A stretch of 27,879 nt of DNA, taken from a virus (Duplodnaviria > Heunggongvirae > Uroviricota > Caudoviricetes). The translations under genes and the position numbers were made by a program. Location: the IMG/VR virus record IMGVR_UViG_2648501730_000022, positions 1 to 27,879 of that record, one strand, 5' to 3'. Under the pieces are notes generated by a model that saw only the letters and a list, made by a program, of their open reading frames with translations, made no database searches and was not told the DNA's origin. This document shows, piece by piece, positions 7,483 through 27,879 of this stretch (within the stretch, counting starts at the first letter, position 1; each line of letters begins with the position of its first letter).

Positions 7483-7956
7483 TCATCCGGCAGTGAAGAT
7501 TTGCTGTTTCAGCGGAGCACCATCCACCGCGAAGGTAAACTCTTTGGTTACAACTTCTTCATCGCCACCGTTCATAGCAACTTTAGAAATGAAGCCGTTG
7601 AAAGCGGTGCGAATACCAGTCTGTTTTGCTGCGTCAACGTAATATTCTACTTTAATCTGAATACGAGTACCGTCTTCGGCAGCTTTGATCAGTTTTTCAT
7701 GTACCGCATCGCCTGGGATGTAGTTAACGGTCAGAGTCAGATCAGGAACGTTCAGCTTCCCTACCAGTTTACGGTTATACTGAGAAGAGAAGGATTTAAC
7801 TTCTACAGTACCGCGCTCGATACCAGTTTCAGGAAAACCAGCACACTCTTTAATTTCTTCGTAGCTTTCGTGGTCGAGAGCGGTATTAGTGGTGTCCGCG
7901 TGATAGAACAGACTTACCAGACCACCAGTAAAAATATCTTTGAATTGCTGAGACAT
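7483..7956 (-). CDS. Putative major tail tube protein (157 aa)
   Basis: Short protein upstream of the chaperones and tape measure, followed by a strong terminator. ATG at 7954-7956 preceded by a GGGG Shine-Dalgarno. Homologous to the N-terminal ~160 aa of the 277-aa protein at 11595-12428 (shared DIFTG, FP.T, LTL, KA.ED motifs). Confidence 0.5.
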   Translation of the reverse strand: MSQQFKDIFTGGLVSLFYHADTTNTALDHESYEEIKECAGFPETGIERGTVEVKSFSSQYNRKLVGKLNVPDLTLTVNYIPGDAVHEKLIKAAEDGTRIQIKVEYYVDAAKQTGIRTAFNGFISKVAMNGGDEEVVTKEFTFAVDGAPLKQQIFTAG

Positions 7957-21203: not shown

Positions 21204-21287
21204 AGTAAAAATCCCCCTTAACGGTTTAGTGATTTAATCCTCCCTGTTCCGGCATCACCACCGGAACAATTTTATTTATAAGAAGTT

Positions 21288-21440: not shown

Positions 21441-21562
21441 AGTTCACATCCTCTTTACAAACCTAGGTCAAATCAGTTCAAAGTTGTCAAGTGCGATAAT
21501 CATAAAAAAGTCTGAAAATTTTGCCAATACCCCTTGACAAGATGCCAAAGGGTTGACCTAAC

Positions 21563-22030
21563 TTACAGCATATCTAAGCCTTCATCGTAACCGTAGAAGC
21601 CACCGTGAGAAGAAAAAGCGATTGGTGCGTAGTCATCATCATCTTCGTCTTCTTCATCGCGTTCTGGTGCTTTCTGAGCGGTTTCTTTGCCGTAGTTAAA
21701 CATTGCTTCATCCAGTTCTTGAAGAGTAAAGAAGCTACCCAGATCAACATCACCGGAACGGACTTCGAAAGGAAGGTATTCGCTAACGATGATCGCTGGA
21801 ATATTCTGGTACTTTAAGCGGCCTTCATCGGTGAAGACGTTAACAACAATGGTCGGCTTCTTATTACGGCAAAACGCATACCATACACTAGAGAAATGAG
21901 ATTCATCAGAGTTGAAAAGAATGTTGTAACCACGTTCAACAAAGATCTTCATTAACTTGTCATTGTGGAAGCTATCAGCATCAAAACCTAACAGGATGAA
22001 AGGAGTAGTGGTAGTCATTTTATGGTTCAT
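21563..22030 (-). CDS. Hypothetical protein with strongly acidic C-terminal tail (155 aa)
   Basis: AGAGGA Shine-Dalgarno before the ATG; C-terminal ERDEEDEDDDDYAPIAF...; first gene leftward from the long intergenic region. Confidence 0.5.
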   Translation of the reverse strand: MNHKMTTTTPFILLGFDADSFHNDKLMKIFVERGYNILFNSDESHFSSVWYAFCRNKKPTIVVNVFTDEGRLKYQNIPAIIVSEYLPFEVRSGDVDLGSFFTLQELDEAMFNYGKETAQKAPERDEEDEDDDDYAPIAFSSHGGFYGYDEGLDML

Positions 22031-22645
22031 AGTGGAAATCCTCTAAAAGAAAGCGAATCAATCTAATATTATTTATAAAGAGAAAATTCTTGTTATTATG
22101 AAAAGAGTGATCTGGTAGAGTCCAAAACTGGTCTGTACTTGAAAGATGATTGGATTCAGTCGGGCTAAAGCCCCCCTTCATAGATTTGATTAAATCATCA
22201 TCAAAACGAAGAAGTATCTTTAGAATATAAGAATCTTTCTTTTGAAGAAATAATAATCAGGAAGCAATTTAGCAACCGAAGGTTGCAATCCCGAAGGGAT
22301 ACCAATACCTTTCTAGAAATTGATTGTTACTCACTTCGTTCGTTTACTAGAATCAGTTAGTAACTAGTATTAAATCCCTTTCTAAGAAAATCCTTTTAAA
22401 AGTGAGTGAACGCCGTAGGCGTGAACGTGAGCGAAGCGAACTATCAATCCCTTTCGAATCCTGCTTGCAGGTCTTAGAAGGTGTTGGTGGGCGCTACGCG
22501 CACGGCTACGCCGTATTCTTTTTGCGAGATCTTTCTTGAACGTAGTGAGAGAAAGCGAGCAAAAAGGAGAACGTTAGTTCGAATTTTATATTCTATGGTC
22601 TGTGGGGTATAATACCTTTCAAGGTCATACACTTACGTGATTGAA

Positions 22646-22764
22646 GTGTAGGGTTAGTGTAGGTGTGTAGGTTTCATAGTGTAGGTTTGAGGGTGTTATA
22701 GTGTAGGTTTACTGGCTAGTGTAGTGTAGGCCAATCCCTTTAAAGGGTAGGTGTGTAGTGTAGG
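22646..22764. repeat. Iteron-like direct-repeat array, 7 copies of GTGTAGG (mostly GTGTAGGTTT)
   Basis: Copies begin at 22646, 22657, 22665, 22679, 22701, 22724 and 22758, same orientation, irregular spacing; the 12-bp palindrome CCCTTTAAAGGG (22735-22746) sits inside the array. Confidence 0.7.
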
Positions 22765-22961
22765 TTTTCAATCAAAAATTTTGACAAAAAATTCTTGTAT
22801 ATTATTCAACCAAAAAACCACCAAAAATAGATGTAAATTCATGATTTAAAAGAAATTTTCAAAAGATCTCCGTGCCATATAAGGTTTAAAAGGTTGATAA
22901 TCATTATTTGCCATTTTCAAACAAAAATTTTGATACACCTTTCTCGCTTAGATCATGAATG

Positions 22962-22990
22962 TTGACATGTGTCAAGAACTATTTTATACT
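22962..22990 (+). promoter_or_regulatory. Near-consensus sigma70-type promoter with operator-like palindrome over the -35
   Basis: TTGACA (22962-22967), 17-nt spacer, TATACT (22985-22990); TTGACAtgTGTCAA is a 14-bp palindrome. Confidence 0.5.
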
Positions 22991-23128
22991 TTTTATCCTT
23001 GGTAGGGGTTGAAATTTTCCAAACAATCCCCATATAGATGATAAGCATGATTTTTCGTGTATAAATACAATGCATGAAAAATGATTGTTCACTTCTGAAA
23101 ATCCCTTGACTAACTGTTAATTCATACA

Positions 23129-23155
23129 GCACTGGTTAGATATGCAGTGCTTTTT
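23129..23155 (+). terminator. Intrinsic terminator ~140 nt downstream of the promoter
   Basis: GCACUG-(10-nt loop)-CAGUGC followed by U5. Confidence 0.5.
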
Positions 23156-23334
23156 CGGTCGAATATTGTACGAATTGATTAATTATTAATCTTCTCTTTA
23201 GCAATTCGTGCTCCCACTGATCGGATATACAGTTGTTTTACAGAGTTTTTGAAAATCATTTTTATAAATAGAATTGTTCAGAGCGAAAAGCTCTTTTTTA
23301 AGGAATTATTAATCCACATGTGAGGAATCGATTT

Positions 23335-23514
23335 ATGGCTAGACCTGTTAAATTTACTCGTGAAATGATTGTTGATATTGCTAAACGGTTTTACAGCGAC
23401 ACTGAGCGAGGCGGGGAAAACTTCTTTAAGAAGGAAGGGATTGATAGAAGCGGATTCTATAAGCTAATGAAGAAATACGAAATTCAGGTAAAGATTAACG
23501 TTCAAGTTTGTTAA
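23335..23514 (+). CDS. Small HTH protein, paralog of the 20099-20323 product (59 aa)
   Basis: ATG at 23335 has a GAGGAA Shine-Dalgarno 7 nt upstream (the track start is a GTG with none); MARPVKFTREMIVDIAKRFY... aligns with the other paralog. Confidence 0.5.
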   Translation: MARPVKFTREMIVDIAKRFYSDTERGGENFFKKEGIDRSGFYKLMKKYEIQVKINVQVC

Positions 23515-23630
23515 TCCACTTTCACTGAGAATTATATGATGGCTTTAAAAATAAAAAGCCTCCCTTGTTGCAGCAAAGGAGACTTGAAATGAACAATTAA
23601 AACTAACACAGCATTCAGGAGTATTTATAA

Positions 23631-24656
23631 ATGAAAAATTCTAAGCGCATCACCTTCAACCTATTCATCAAATCCAACGGCAAACTGAACATTACCGTTA
23701 TGGAAGGTAAAGCAAGCAAACAAGACAAATCCTTTGAAGTAGTATCCGGTAAGACTCTGACCGAAATGCGTCAGAATGCTGGCATCAAAGACGGTGCTGA
23801 ATGGCAGATCACTAACCGTTTCGACAAACGTCACGTTAAACCTACACTGGTAGAAGGTGAATCCGTTTATTGCTTCGCTCGTGCTGTTAAAGCCGATGAA
23901 ACTTACTATCTCGCTGTTATTAAAACTGCTTCCGGCTTCCGTGCTGTAATGCATCACAAGAGCAAGCGTAACGAATACGGCGTAGAGACCCAGGAAGTTG
24001 CAAAACGCTTCCGTACTGTTGCTACTGAATCCACTGTAAAGGATGTTTCTGGTACTGTTAACACCGCTAAAGGCGGTTCCTTCTACAACCACGCATTACA
24101 GGTTACTTCCTCCTTCTTCTGCAAAAAAGAAGCACAGAAAGAAGTTGCTCCGGTAGTAGTTGAAGAAGTTAAAGAAGAAGTTGCAGTGGTTGAATCTTCC
24201 GAAGTTGAAGCACTGAAAGCACGCATTGCTGAACTGGAAGCTGAAAACGCATCTCTGAAAGCTGAACTGGCAGCGCAGGAAACCACTTTCGAAGTAGCAG
24301 CGGTTGAAGTTGAAGCAGTTGAAGAAAAATCCATTGATGAAGAACTGGAAGAACTCCTTAACTATCGCTGGGGTAACGGTGAAAAAGTAGGACAGGAAGA
24401 ACAGAAAGAAGCTGATCCGGTAGTAGTTCCGGTTGAAGAAAAATCCGCACCTGTTACTAACTTTGAATCCCTGCGCAATAACTTTATGGCTAAATTCAAA
24501 ACCACTTGGGAAGATACCGAAGAAGAACAAGAAGAGATTGAAGTAAACGAAGACGAGATCCGCGAAGCACAGATGGCACTGCATGACGCTATCTATGACA
24601 CCAACTACAGCGCCTACGCCTACGCCTACGCCTACGCCTACGCCTACGCAGCTTAA
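23631..24656 (+). CDS. Strongly codon-optimised acidic protein with (AY)6-AA C-terminus (341 aa), function unknown
   Basis: AGGAG Shine-Dalgarno 9 nt before the ATG; codon use is almost exclusively CTG/CGT/GGT/AAA/GAA/ACC/TTC, unlike neighbouring genes; central Glu/Val-rich coiled coil; ends ...SAYAYAYAYAYAYAA. Confidence 0.7.
   Translation: MKNSKRITFNLFIKSNGKLNITVMEGKASKQDKSFEVVSGKTLTEMRQNAGIKDGAEWQITNRFDKRHVKPTLVEGESVYCFARAVKADETYYLAVIKTASGFRAVMHHKSKRNEYGVETQEVAKRFRTVATESTVKDVSGTVNTAKGGSFYNHALQVTSSFFCKKEAQKEVAPVVVEEVKEEVAVVESSEVEALKARIAELEAENASLKAELAAQETTFEVAAVEVEAVEEKSIDEELEELLNYRWGNGEKVGQEEQKEADPVVVPVEEKSAPVTNFESLRNNFMAKFKTTWEDTEEEQEEIEVNEDEIREAQMALHDAIYDTNYSAYAYAYAYAYAYAA
24612..24647 (+). 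repeat. Hexanucleotide microsatellite (GCCTAC)x6 encoding the (AY)6 tail
   Basis: Six perfect tandem GCCTAC units in frame at the 3' end of the 341-aa gene. Confidence 0.9.
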
Positions 24657-27528: not shown

Positions 27529-27879
27529 TTATTTGGGGTTGACTACATTCGGGTTGCCAATTCGCCTGGCTAACTCTTGCTGAGTGATTTCTGACTGTAA
27601 AAAAGCATTTAACAGCAATACCTTAGAGGCGACGCTCAAAGGTACTTCAATAAAATGATCGTGACTATTTAATGGCGAAGGTAACGGGATAAGCTCGTTA
27701 TCTTCAAAATAAAAATCAAATGCGGTCAGTAAAGCATCTTTTGCCGCTTCCATCGCTTCAGCGACAGTTTCGCCCTGGGTCAACGCTTCAGGGATATCCA
27801 CAAAAGAAACCATATAACCGCCTTCCGGCGCGGGTGTAAGAGTGACGGGATAACGCATAATTTCGACTGTCTCTCGCAT
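27529..27879 (-). CDS. hicB: HicB antitoxin N-terminal domain with C-terminal HTH truncated; probable host gene interrupted at the prophage junction
   Basis: MRETVEIMRYPVTLTPAPEGGYMVSFVDIPEALTQGETVAEAMEAAKDAL... is a HicB N-terminal domain and matches my recollection of E. coli HicB. The ORF stops at ...QQELARRIG-NPNVVNPK*, inside the first helix of the expected Xre-type HTH. The ATG is at the window edge. Confidence 0.65.
   Translation of the reverse strand: MRETVEIMRYPVTLTPAPEGGYMVSFVDIPEALTQGETVAEAMEAAKDALLTAFDFYFEDNELIPLPSPLNSHDHFIEVPLSVASKVLLLNAFLQSEITQQELARRIGNPNVVNPK

Follow-up and report, generated by a model that had tools for sequence, protein, structure and literature searches.

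A conserved, structured noncoding block in hicB-integrated prophages is a candidate terminator-gated leader of a control operon

Introduction

What is a near-consensus promoter doing in a prophage where no gene follows it for more than 300 nucleotides? The window, by which we mean the whole 27,879-nt stretch of viral DNA that was analysed, holds such a promoter, with intrinsic terminators between it and the next rightward gene. A first-pass annotation, made from the letters alone, had read the interval either as a small RNA of ~150 nt or as an attenuator leader of the downstream operon. Here we weigh these and several other readings. The one we prefer, and to which we give an even chance, is that the sequence specifies a conserved, structured, noncoding, terminator-gated leader (attenuator) of a rightward control operon, which would yield RNAs of ~155 and ~300 nt.

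The window, from an uncharacterised E. coli prophage, belongs to a family of ~35-kb prophages of temperate siphophage type, integrated in hicB. The family is present in 31-58 of 5,426 complete E. coli genomes (~0.6-1%), the range being set by whether the query was the 401-nt candidate region or a 1.7-kb gap. Salmonella and Proteus also carry it. When relatives were sought in one genome per species, the terminase and the P1 motif each gave 0 matches, and only a 59-aa protein encoded downstream of the promoter led to them. Thirteen further loci from pattern scans (L036-L042 and L044-L049) were dropped as chance or unrelated matches, L044-L049 being AT-rich phage promoters that carry this same palindromic -35. 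A literature search for a hicB-integrated prophage turned up only an unrelated plasmid hicAB. The structural genes lie on the opposite strand from the leader operon. Scans with PHROGs, Pfam and NCBIfam found no recognisable CI-like repressor in the 35-kb prophage, no recognisable replication or antitermination genes were found in the prophage, and a tRNA/tmRNA search found none.

Results

A conserved promoter precedes an interval without an open reading frame

Three features frame the locus.

22962-22990, + strand: sigma70-type promoter TTGACA-17-TATACT, with the -35 at 22962-22967 and the -10 at 22985-22990; score 11/12
22962-22975, no strand assigned: palindrome TTGACAtgTGTCAA, with core TTGAC-N4-GTCAA, spanning the -35 and reaching into the spacer; candidate operator
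23335-23514, + strand: the first gene proposed to be gated, encoding a 59-aa orphan with three predicted helices and homologs in E. coli, Salmonella and Proteus

The promoter is the top sigma70-type match within 21500-24500, a region in which promoter-like matches as a class are not above chance (11 vs 7.0 +/- 2.4 expected). Its reading as near-consensus is borne out by 50 distinct copies of the locus from E. coli, Salmonella and Proteus prophages, 49 of which score at least 10/12. The -35 is TTGACA in 45/50 and the spacer 17 nt in 49/50; the -10 is TATACT in 32 copies and TATAAT in 11 (43/50 together). From the position of these hexamers we infer transcription with a start site at ~22995-22998.

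The palindrome over the -35, which the first-pass annotation took for a likely repressor site, is indeed there, and TTGAC-N4-GTCAA is kept in 45/50 copies, Salmonella included. TTGACAtgTGTCAA is the sole perfect copy within the window and within a complete prophage, and further operator-palindrome copies occur at chance level only. In E. coli the centre varies freely between invariant arms, a pattern that fits an operator, and a putative repressor probably binds it.

The interval itself had been described as having no plausible ORF, and this holds on the + strand, where no ORF from the promoter to 23320 reaches 25 aa. For this reason, and because homolog indels frameshift the 59-aa minus-strand ORF at 22953-23132, we discarded the idea of a conserved small ORF. 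Nothing else in the locus is as conserved as the noncoding block at 22760-23300, whose pairwise identity is 0.83-0.98 vs 0.5-0.75 for the flanking genes.

Two terminators of unequal constancy

22962-23300 carries two hairpins followed by U-runs.

23128-23134 / 23145-23151, + strand: terminator T1, AGCACUG / CAGUGCU, a 7-bp stem with a 10-nt loop (-9.8 kcal/mol), U5 to 23155
23280-23294, + strand: terminator T2, AGAGC-GAAAA-GCUCU plus U6, T-run to 23299

Promoter, palindrome, T1, T2 and the ORF-free interval are conserved across the 50 distinct copies, and the two terminators differ in how strictly. All features of the first-pass annotation lie where it put them or within 1-3 nt of there; T1, at 23128-23155, had been placed at 23129-23155 as a GC hairpin plus U5. 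It escaped a consensus terminator scan for one reason alone, a 10-nt loop above the tool's 8-nt limit. One of its base pairs runs from A-U through G.U to G-C across copies, and a C-G pair is changed to U-A in L067 and L068. Its U-run is interrupted in four E. coli copies and lost in the Salmonella copies L067-L069, and the entire T1 region is missing from L070, L072, L073 and the Proteus copies.

T2 had been noted as a second, weak hairpin. It is present, and weak by its energy in most copies (-5.5 to -6.5 kcal/mol), yet it is the universally conserved one of the two, found in 50/50 distinct copies with a stem of 5-6 bp, energies of -5.5 to -9.2 kcal/mol and U4-7. Its loop varies while the stem is maintained, and it stands 35-38 nt before the ATG in 45/50 copies. 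The terminator scan calls T2 in the window and also in L070. The leader from promoter to T2 ranges from 53 to 304 nt; some Salmonella copies (L070, L072) consist of just the promoter and 53-54 nt to the end of T2, with nothing between.

Conservation does not stop at T1. Identity peaks 3' of it, at 0.95-0.98 over 23160-23240, and collapses right after T2, where the alleles of the downstream genes are mosaic. With the peak past T1, a long-range helix spanning T1 (below) and T1 itself lost in several lineages, a discrete 150-nt small RNA ending at T1 is not supported as the functional unit; of the two readings first offered, the leader is favoured.

A conserved fold is predicted for the leader RNA

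On the + strand the E. coli copies model as a series of hairpins and one long-range helix.

23005-23031, + strand: hairpin P1, GGGGUUG / CAAUCCCC, 12-nt loop; 97.8% of cells paired
23049-23086, + strand: variable hairpin VH, whose loop contains TATAAATA at 23060-23067; 11 stem alleles
23112-23117, + strand: 5' strand of long-range helix LR, AACUGU (CACUGU in most copies), pairing with 23229-23234
23168-23211, + strand: hairpin H14, GUACGAAUUGAUUAA / UUUAGCAAUUCGUGC, with an invariant 3' arm
23214-23235, + strand: local hairpin T1', a T1 paralogue (CACTG-N10-CAGTG-N-TTTT) that competes with LR
23229-23239, + strand: 3' strand of LR, ACAGUU (23229-23234), then UUUU (23236-23239); alternatively the 3' arm of T1'
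23263-23270, + strand: TATAAATA motif, 10 nt 5' of T2

Modelled pairs are paired in 95.2% of cells, against 30-57% with slid partners, and changes on both sides of a pair fall in 19-20 cells vs 5.2 in shuffles; for cells paired, both-side-change cells and covariation score alike, 0/500 shuffles reach the observed values. Compensatory change is limited to 3-4 pairs and most pairs never vary, a thinness of covariation that reflects the shallowness of the family. Mean MFE is -76 kcal/mol on the + strand vs -62 on the - strand, 14 better on +, as would suit a + strand RNA. In the mosaic relative L043, ~250 nt cannot be aligned, yet a hairpin plus U-run at the T1 position and T2 are both kept, and its leader folds with z = -5.9.

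The elements differ in how they are preserved. P1 shows a wobble-compatible U-A to U-G change, and since several Salmonella leaders do without it, the core function does not need it. All 11 stem alleles of VH fold as a hairpin around the same loop, in 9/11 more stably on the + than on the - strand, and L063, L065 and L066 are without VH. LR encloses T1, and its first pair is C-G in 30, U.G in 7, A-U in 1 and C.A in 2 of 40 distinct copies; two of the only four substitutions unique to the window's lineage hit this pair. We weighed T1' as a possible third terminator and then gave it less weight, since in Salmonella its stem breaks (7-10 of 40 copies) and the competing LR holds. In 33 E. coli copies H14 stays 100% paired, any changes being to wobble pairs. 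In Salmonella its 5' arm erodes without compensation (A.A in 10/40) and its 3' arm is invariant in 40/40. This arm, like much of 23160-23240, is constant at the level of sequence and not of pairing, which suggests recognition at the protein or DNA level.

Such constancy could also belong to a DNA-level element, a replication origin, partition or packaging site whose inverted repeats are protein sites beside an iteron array and whose promoter serves only transcriptional activation. A TAGTGTAGG repeat array at 22640-22770 followed by an AT-rich conserved block, the extreme nucleotide conservation of 23160-23240 and the lack of recognisable replication genes all speak for it. We think it very unlikely, given that folding is strand-asymmetric with many G.U pairs that become C.A on the opposite strand, that hairpins with U-runs persist where the sequence is unalignable, that the leader varies between 53 and 304 nt with promoter and T2 retained, and that the iteron block is itself poorly conserved.

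Of all the alternatives, the one we hold least probable is immunity by RNA, as in phage P4, where a processed piece of the leader RNA forces premature termination of the leader. Here a constantly transcribed leader would be processed into a piece that terminates that same leader and silences the lytic operon with no protein repressor, a scheme in keeping with the near-consensus promoter, the tandem terminators, the failure to recognise a CI-like repressor and the repeated CACUG / CAGUG segments (three 5'-type and two 3'-type). The minimal leaders L070 and L072 contain none of the repeated segments, however, the palindrome across the -35 is suggestive of a protein repressor, and such a repressor could be among the many orphan proteins. 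Nor do covariance models help: across the whole window Rfam gave 0 matches at gathering thresholds, with C4 antisense RNA, SAM-II and phage sRNAs included, and at permissive E (up to 5) a search of 22000-23700 returned chance-level matches only (E 0.25-3.7, bits far below thresholds), none of them C4/CI RNA.

The downstream genes lack another sigma70 promoter

The rightward operon encodes the 59-aa HTH-like protein followed by 341-aa and 80-aa coiled-coil proteins, all orphans. An AF2 model of the 59-aa protein reached pLDDT 78.6, and its top matches in a fold search were generic HTH domains, not significant (best E = 2); a single-sequence AF2 model of a 155-aa protein (pLDDT 39.6) was unusable. 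No second sigma70-type promoter lies between T2 and the gene, which are ~35 nt apart, and between T1 and the gene none was seen by eye or listed by the scan. Because no other sigma70 promoter serves these genes, and because L070 and L072 carry a bare promoter plus T2, their expression would depend on read-through of T2.

These features suggest the following sequence of events. Host RNA polymerase would start at the near-consensus promoter, whose -35 sits inside the TTGAC-N4-GTCAA palindrome that a repressor probably occupies. The E. coli transcript would fold into P1, VH and then an LR-closed domain holding T1 and H14, and end at T2, 35 nt before the first gene. By promoter-proximal intrinsic termination many polymerases may stop at T1 (~155 nt) or T2 (~300 nt), and the genes would be expressed only by read-through. 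As T2 is weak (5 bp), read-through may be leaky or factor-dependent; T2 might even act mainly as an insulator or 5' stabiliser. The short RNAs would be products of the gate, possibly with an activity of their own. For this gate we identified no antiterminator, alternative anti-terminator fold or regulator.

Could the short RNA instead be the point of the locus? A stand-alone trans-acting small RNA (~155 nt to T1, ~300 nt to T2, ~53 nt in the minimal copies) would pair with host or phage mRNAs, perhaps via Hfq, and read-through into the operon would be incidental. In enterobacterial small RNAs, an AU-rich stretch followed by a terminator hairpin and poly-U forms the Hfq-binding module. Every copy has a stretch of this kind, AU-rich and single-stranded: UUUUAUAAAUA, 10 nt, the T2 hairpin and a U4-7 tail, a resemblance of sequence only. 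Together with the strong promoter and terminators, the invariant 18-nt segment at 23197-23214, constrained as sequence, and the precedent of StxS, a terminated phage leader that acts as a small RNA (PMC7547250), this makes activity in trans conceivable. Against it, lineages share no related sequence in the 5' part, where the seed usually lies, no complement to the invariant segment (23196-23214) occurs elsewhere in the prophage, to which that search was limited, and no Rfam family matches. A role in cis, moreover, cannot be incidental, as the downstream genes are without another sigma70 promoter. We regard this explanation as possible but doubtful, and the terminator-gated leader as the better account.

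A recurring motif and hairpin mark the control region

The motif 5' of T2 is part of a wider pattern. (T/C)ATAAATA occurs there in 50/50 copies, with 10-nt spacing to GAGC in 45/50. TATAAATA has five copies clustered in the control region vs 0.25 expected (20-fold) and none in the other 25 kb. It lies on the coding strand, 26-70 nt 5' of genes from at least four families and in each of the three genera, and a hairpin follows within 3-45 nt at four or five sites, so that the motif and hairpin recur before nearly every control-region gene. VH is homologous to one such cassette, 5' of a ~150-aa gene in Salmonella.

TATAAATA is identical to the T4 late-promoter consensus and has no -35 partner. 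Sigma70 needs a T at the last -10 position, which the motif lacks. T4 late promoters depend on gp55, gp33 and gp45 (PMC2988020, PMC1524935). PHROGs, Pfam, NCBIfam, a PDB sequence search and tblastn against 50,697 phage records, all of them sequence-level and thus short of remote structural homology, found no gp55, gp33 or sigma-like protein among the orphan proteins. The likeness to T4 late promoters extends to the identical 8-mer, its place on the coding strand a few tens of nucleotides 5' of genes and the missing -35 (PMC2988020, PMC1524935). It ends with the phage, which is temperate, only 35 kb long and without a gp55/gp33 homolog that we could find, and with the position of TATAAATA, which here precedes control-region rather than structural genes and is usually followed by a hairpin.

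Should the TATAAATA 10 nt 5' of T2 act as a promoter, transcription of the operon could begin there, and the leader would not strictly gate it. The locus would then be a composite cassette, in which T2 (with T1) insulates the operon, TATAAATA is a second, factor-dependent promoter that drives the genes with the T2 hairpin at the 5' end of their mRNA, and the RNA from the sigma70 promoter to T2 is a by-product or a separate unit; its conservation would be that of a recombination linker between shuffled modules. The enrichment, strand and spacing of TATAAATA and the hairpins that follow it count in favour of this reading, as do the break in similarity right after T2 and the mosaic alleles beyond. 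It also has a model in the PeSL cassettes of RB49-type phages, which follow such logic (PMC2839356, PMC4122927); conserved promoter-terminator cassettes may persist as recombination linkers (PMC2839356), and in the same gap as the leader ~80 nt (22177-22260) are ~80% identical to repeated RB49 intergenic DNA. We nevertheless rate it as rather unlikely: TATAAATA lacks the final -10 T that sigma70 needs, no gp55-, gp33- or sigma-like protein turned up in the sequence searches, a promoter 10 nt before a hairpin and U-run would mostly terminate its own transcripts, and TATAAATA may rather serve as an RNA- or protein-binding element.

A bolder version, which we hold to be quite improbable, is that TATAAATA-hairpin cassettes wire the whole control region, standing before the genes for the Rha-like protein and for proteins of 203, ~150 and 59 aa, and before a conserved putative antisense RNA of ~70 nt that would run from 23615 to 23546. 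They would be activated by an unrecognised gp55-like factor of the phage, or else the prophage would eavesdrop on T4 and rely on a superinfecting T-even phage for the late-transcription machinery, and the leader would be the single entry point for host polymerase into the circuit, or its RNA-level brake.

Discussion

If the region is a terminator-gated leader, it is most likely a phage switch of a familiar type, found here in a family with an otherwise undescribed control circuit. The 6S RNA of lambda and StxS, its counterpart in Stx phages, arise from PR'-tR' (PMC7547250). Our locus, too, has a strong phage promoter and, no more than ~150-300 nt away, an intrinsic terminator, the interval being free of ORFs, and we propose that here too the short RNA is the product of a termination gate that downstream genes need polymerase to pass (PMC7547250). 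The leader differs in its two or three terminators in tandem, its large structured domain and its unrelated sequence, and the genes after it encode small orphan regulators, not lysis or structural proteins. It thus has the layout of a lambda-type Q unit (constitutive promoter, terminator within ~200 nt, no ORF between) and not its late genes, since the 59-, 341- and 80-aa orphans follow; PHROGs, Pfam and NCBIfam scans of the control-region and recombinase-end proteins found no Q-family antiterminator.

IsrK of the Salmonella Gifsy-1 prophage has short and long isoforms (PMC4825925), and we propose the same for the leader, a prophage promoter giving a short terminated and a long read-through form that includes downstream genes; the two have no sequence or Rfam relationship. 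The leaders of P4 (CI), P1 (c4) and N15 (CA), of the Rfam C4 family, are transcribed from the prophage and terminate prematurely 5' of lytic genes, as ours would, in a phage with no obvious protein repressor; our leader has neither a covariance-model match nor covarying complementarity of the seqA/B/C type.

The PeSL elements of the T4-type phages RB49 and phi1 (PMC2839356, PMC4122927) resemble the locus in another way: a strong sigma70-type promoter and a terminator stem-loop stand before orphan genes, and the cassette outlasts its flanking genes in conservation, with similarity breaking at the cassette edge. The RB49-like stretch nearby adds to the resemblance. PeSLs, however, are ~100 bp long, number ~50 per genome and belong to lytic myoviruses, whereas the leader measures 53-304 nt from promoter to terminator, has its promoter and palindrome once per genome and resides in a temperate siphovirus. 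Temperate siphophages and T4-type phages seem to have exchanged regulatory cassettes, to judge by the recurring TATAAATA-hairpin units and the RB49-like stretch.

If true, the leader reading would give the small group of phage leaders that also serve as short RNAs (6S/StxS, IsrK, P4 CI) a further member, structured, unannotated and without an Rfam family, and a terminator-gated leader would offer a natural handle on the decision between lysogeny and lytic growth in the hicB-integrated family.

Setting and conservation of the control region

The window is a prophage whose right end is a disrupted hicB gene, and its segment 22000-23700 matches E. coli C325 with 100% identity. A complete element of ~35 kb, inserted in hicB (O55:H7 DEC5A), encodes a large serine recombinase, an endolysin, siphovirus tail and head proteins and a gpA-type terminase. 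The prophage splits hicB in E. coli (window 27529-27879; 7655-7774 and 43066-43374 in the compared locus L019), and a HicB-like gene also adjoins the Proteus relative (L059 8016-8180), which suggests that the attachment site in hicB is conserved. An IS3 element cuts off the C325 prophage within the capsid gene.

A gene-free gap of 1.3 kb (22031-23334) holds a promoter and two terminator hairpins, T1 and T2. It is flanked by a leftward 155-aa gene on one side and by rightward 59-aa, 341-aa coiled-coil and 80-aa genes on the other. Except for a Rha-type domain, the control-region proteins had no match in Pfam, PHROGs, NCBIfam, PADLOC, PDB sequences or annotated phage proteins, and family and sequence searches of the prophage proteins found no CI-like repressor, replication protein or antiterminator. 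The 155-aa orphan protein (21563-22030, -) has a very acidic C-terminal third ending ...YDEGLDML, and we take its terminal LDxL to resemble the sliding-clamp-binding tails of T4 proteins. The 341-aa orphan protein (23631-24656, +) combines a coiled coil in its centre with a AYAYAYAYAYAYAA repeat at its C-terminus; it differs greatly in length and sequence among copies and has two paralogues in the mosaic relative L043.

Thirty-one complete E. coli genomes carry the region (86-100% identity), as do 17 IMG/VR contigs of ~35 kb and nine metagenome contigs; it is absent from the representative genome of every other species searched. Copies in Salmonella enterica and Proteus mirabilis, reached via the 59-aa protein, have the same gene order and a gap of 1.4-1.6 kb; the comparison set comprised 50 distinct sequences. 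Within the 3.4 kb examined, conservation among 18 E. coli copies is highest in the block 22760-23300 (mean pairwise identity 0.83-0.98, versus 0.5-0.75 in the genes on either side), with one dip at a variable hairpin. Directly after the T2 U-run similarity collapses, and the downstream gene alleles are mosaic from there.

A near-consensus promoter with a candidate operator

The first-pass annotation had proposed a promoter, TTGACA-17-TATACT at 22962-22990, with its -35 inside a palindrome. Both are present: the promoter is an 11/12 match, the best in 3 kb, and the palindrome TTGACAtgTGTCAA is perfect. Of the 50 copies, 45 have TTGACA as the -35 and 49 a 17-nt spacer; the -10 reads TATACT in 32 and TATAAT in 11. 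The palindrome TTGAC-N4-GTCAA, also found in 45 of the 50, has invariant arms and a free centre and occurs only once in the prophage, a pattern as expected for an operator; we regard it as a candidate operator.

Unrelated AT-rich phage contigs from IMG/VR (L044-L049) have promoters with the same palindromic -35 layout, TTGACAnnTGTCAA then TATTTTAT, which may reflect a convergent operator-in-promoter design. A conserved AT-rich block contains two copies of a ~31-nt repeat, 149 bp apart (22765-22795 and 22914-22944), each with a TCAA(A)-N7-TTTGA inverted repeat; the second lies at about -83 to -53 relative to the sigma70 promoter, and both may be regulator sites. The sequence (T)AGTGTAGG is repeated ~8 times in an iteron-like array at 22640-22770, a block poorly conserved among copies. 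In some Salmonella cassettes this 9-mer comes immediately after TATAAATAC (TATAAATAC-TAGTGTAGG), suggesting that one protein binds both. A candidate antisense promoter, TTTATA-16/17-TATCAT (23038-23065, -), is a weak 9/12 match whose hexamers are both invariant in copies with the leader hairpins P1 and VH; its RNA would be antisense to the promoter and to the leader's first ~35 nt.

A predicted conserved leader fold

The interval downstream of the promoter had been described as a hairpin plus U5, then a second hairpin, with no ORF, and each point was confirmed. T1 (23128-23151) has a 7-bp stem and a 10-nt loop (-9.8 kcal/mol) followed by U5; T2 (AGAGC-GAAAA-GCUCU, 23280-23294) precedes a U6 run and was recognised by a terminator scan. 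The interval has no + strand ORF of at least 25 aa and matched no Rfam family or tRNA.

Elements of the modelled E. coli leader
23005-23031, + strand, hairpin P1
23049-23086, + strand, variable hairpin VH
23128-23155, + strand, T1
23168-23211, + strand, hairpin H14
23280-23299, + strand, T2
23112-23117 with 23229-23234, + strand, long-range helix LR, alternative to T1'
23214-23235, + strand, T1', a local T1-like hairpin, alternative to LR

The + strand has a mean MFE of -76.2 versus -62.3 for its complement, ~14 kcal/mol better. Across 33 distinct E. coli copies, standard pairs fill 95.2% of cells versus 30-57% with slid partners, and both sides have changed in 19-20 cells versus 5.2 in shuffles, a value reached in 0 of 500. 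The family is shallow, and true covariation is therefore confined to 3-4 pairs. One T1 pair runs from A-U through G.U to G-C across copies, and in Salmonella another has switched from C-G to U-A. Of 40 copies, 30 have C-G as the first LR pair, seven U.G, one A-U and two a mismatch; the window lineage has four unique substitutions in 300 nt, two of which are exactly this pair. The stem of T1', the competitor of LR, is broken in 7-10 of the 40. All 11 stem alleles of VH fold on a common loop, and nine are more stable as the + strand. L043 shares the promoter, P1 and VH; then come ~250 nt that cannot be aligned, yet it retains T2 and a hairpin plus U-run at the T1 position (leader fold z = -5.9). 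The 5' arm of H14 is eroded in Salmonella without compensation and its 3' arm, TTTAGCAATTCGTGCTCC, is unchanged in all 40 copies, an asymmetry that counts against a purely structural reading; TTTAGCAATTCGTGCTCC has no complementary partner elsewhere in the prophage.

T2 is the constant element

T2 occurs in all 50 copies (stem 5-6 bp, -5.5 to -9.2 kcal/mol, U4-7), its loop varying while the stem is kept, and in 45 it precedes the start codon by 35-38 nt. Most Salmonella copies have an identical T1; three (L067-L069) have lost its U-run. In four E. coli copies the U-run is interrupted, the stem mismatched, or both. T1 and the entire structured domain are missing from L070, L072, L073 and the Proteus copies, and in L070 and L072 the palindromic promoter lies just 53-54 nt upstream of the T2 end. 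The RNAs predicted in E. coli run 152-160 nt to T1 and 300-304 nt to T2. The ~150-nt small RNA of the first-pass annotation is a real predicted product in E. coli but is not the functional unit that is conserved. Between T2 and the 59-aa gene (23335-23514, +) there is no other sigma70-type promoter, so this first gene should depend on T2 read-through.

The region is best read as a leader that is promoter-proximal and terminator-gated (an attenuator), with short non-coding RNAs as its terminated products. The original observation was confirmed and its interpretation partly supported. The lambda 6S/StxS RNAs made at PR'-tR' work in the same way, a terminated leader yielding a short RNA (PMC7547250), as do the short and long isoforms of IsrK (PMC4825925). 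Action of the short RNAs in trans, a P4-like RNA immunity and a role at the DNA level are all ranked below the gated leader. Since no regulator of read-through was identified, leakiness of the weak T2 terminator and regulated antitermination are equally likely.

A T4-late-type motif in the control region

Nearly all copies have the 8-mer TATAAATA 10 nt ahead of T2; the 8-mer also forms the loop of VH.

Occurrences of TATAAATA in the window
21273-21280, - strand
22070-22077, - strand
23060-23067, + strand, VH loop
23263-23270, + strand, upstream of T2
23622-23629, - strand, abutting the 341-aa gene start

These five copies fall in a 2.5-kb control region where local shuffles predict 0.25 (0 of 2000 reach five), and the other 25.4 kb of the window contain none. 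Positions are the same in the compared loci L019, L043 and L059-L073. In E. coli, Salmonella and Proteus the motif occupies conserved coding-strand positions, 26-70 nt ahead of the 203-aa, Rha-like, ~150-aa and 59-aa genes, and a hairpin follows it at four or five sites. TATAAATA is the T4 late promoter consensus (PMC2988020; PMC1524935). The main rival to the gated leader is that TATAAATA is itself a promoter, with T2 an insulator and 5' hairpin rather than a gate. No gp55- or gp33-like protein was found, so the motif may be a promoter, an RNA element or a protein site.

A leftward TATAAATA abutting the 341-aa start codon marks a candidate antisense RNA (23546-23629, -). After 30-45 variable nt it is followed by a strong covarying terminator (23585-23556, -), an 11-14-bp GC hairpin with a long U-run. 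E. coli and Salmonella both conserve the unit, with covariation in its stem. This arrangement predicts a conserved antisense RNA of ~70 nt, with complementarity to the 341-aa gene's 5' UTR.

Within a second conserved noncoding block (22160-22320), ~80 nt (22177-22260) are ~76-82% identical to intergenic DNA of RB49-type (Krischvirus) T4-like phages, where it occurs in 2-3 copies per genome and, in RB49, upstream of ORF164c. RB49-type phages carry promoter-terminator cassettes, PeSLs, that flank orphan genes and mediate shuffling (PMC2839356), and 22177-22260 may be a PeSL-like promoter/stem-loop cassette common to a temperate siphophage and lytic myoviruses. Two adjoining hairpins at 22268-22301 (-), GCAACC-TTCG-GTTGC and ATCCC-TTCG-GGAT, are each capped by a C(UUCG)G tetraloop and are conserved between E. 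coli and Salmonella; they could stabilise or terminate the leftward transcript.

Leaders of this kind are already known; the region described here is a conserved, structured and previously unannotated leader RNA with tandem terminators, whose transcription we infer.
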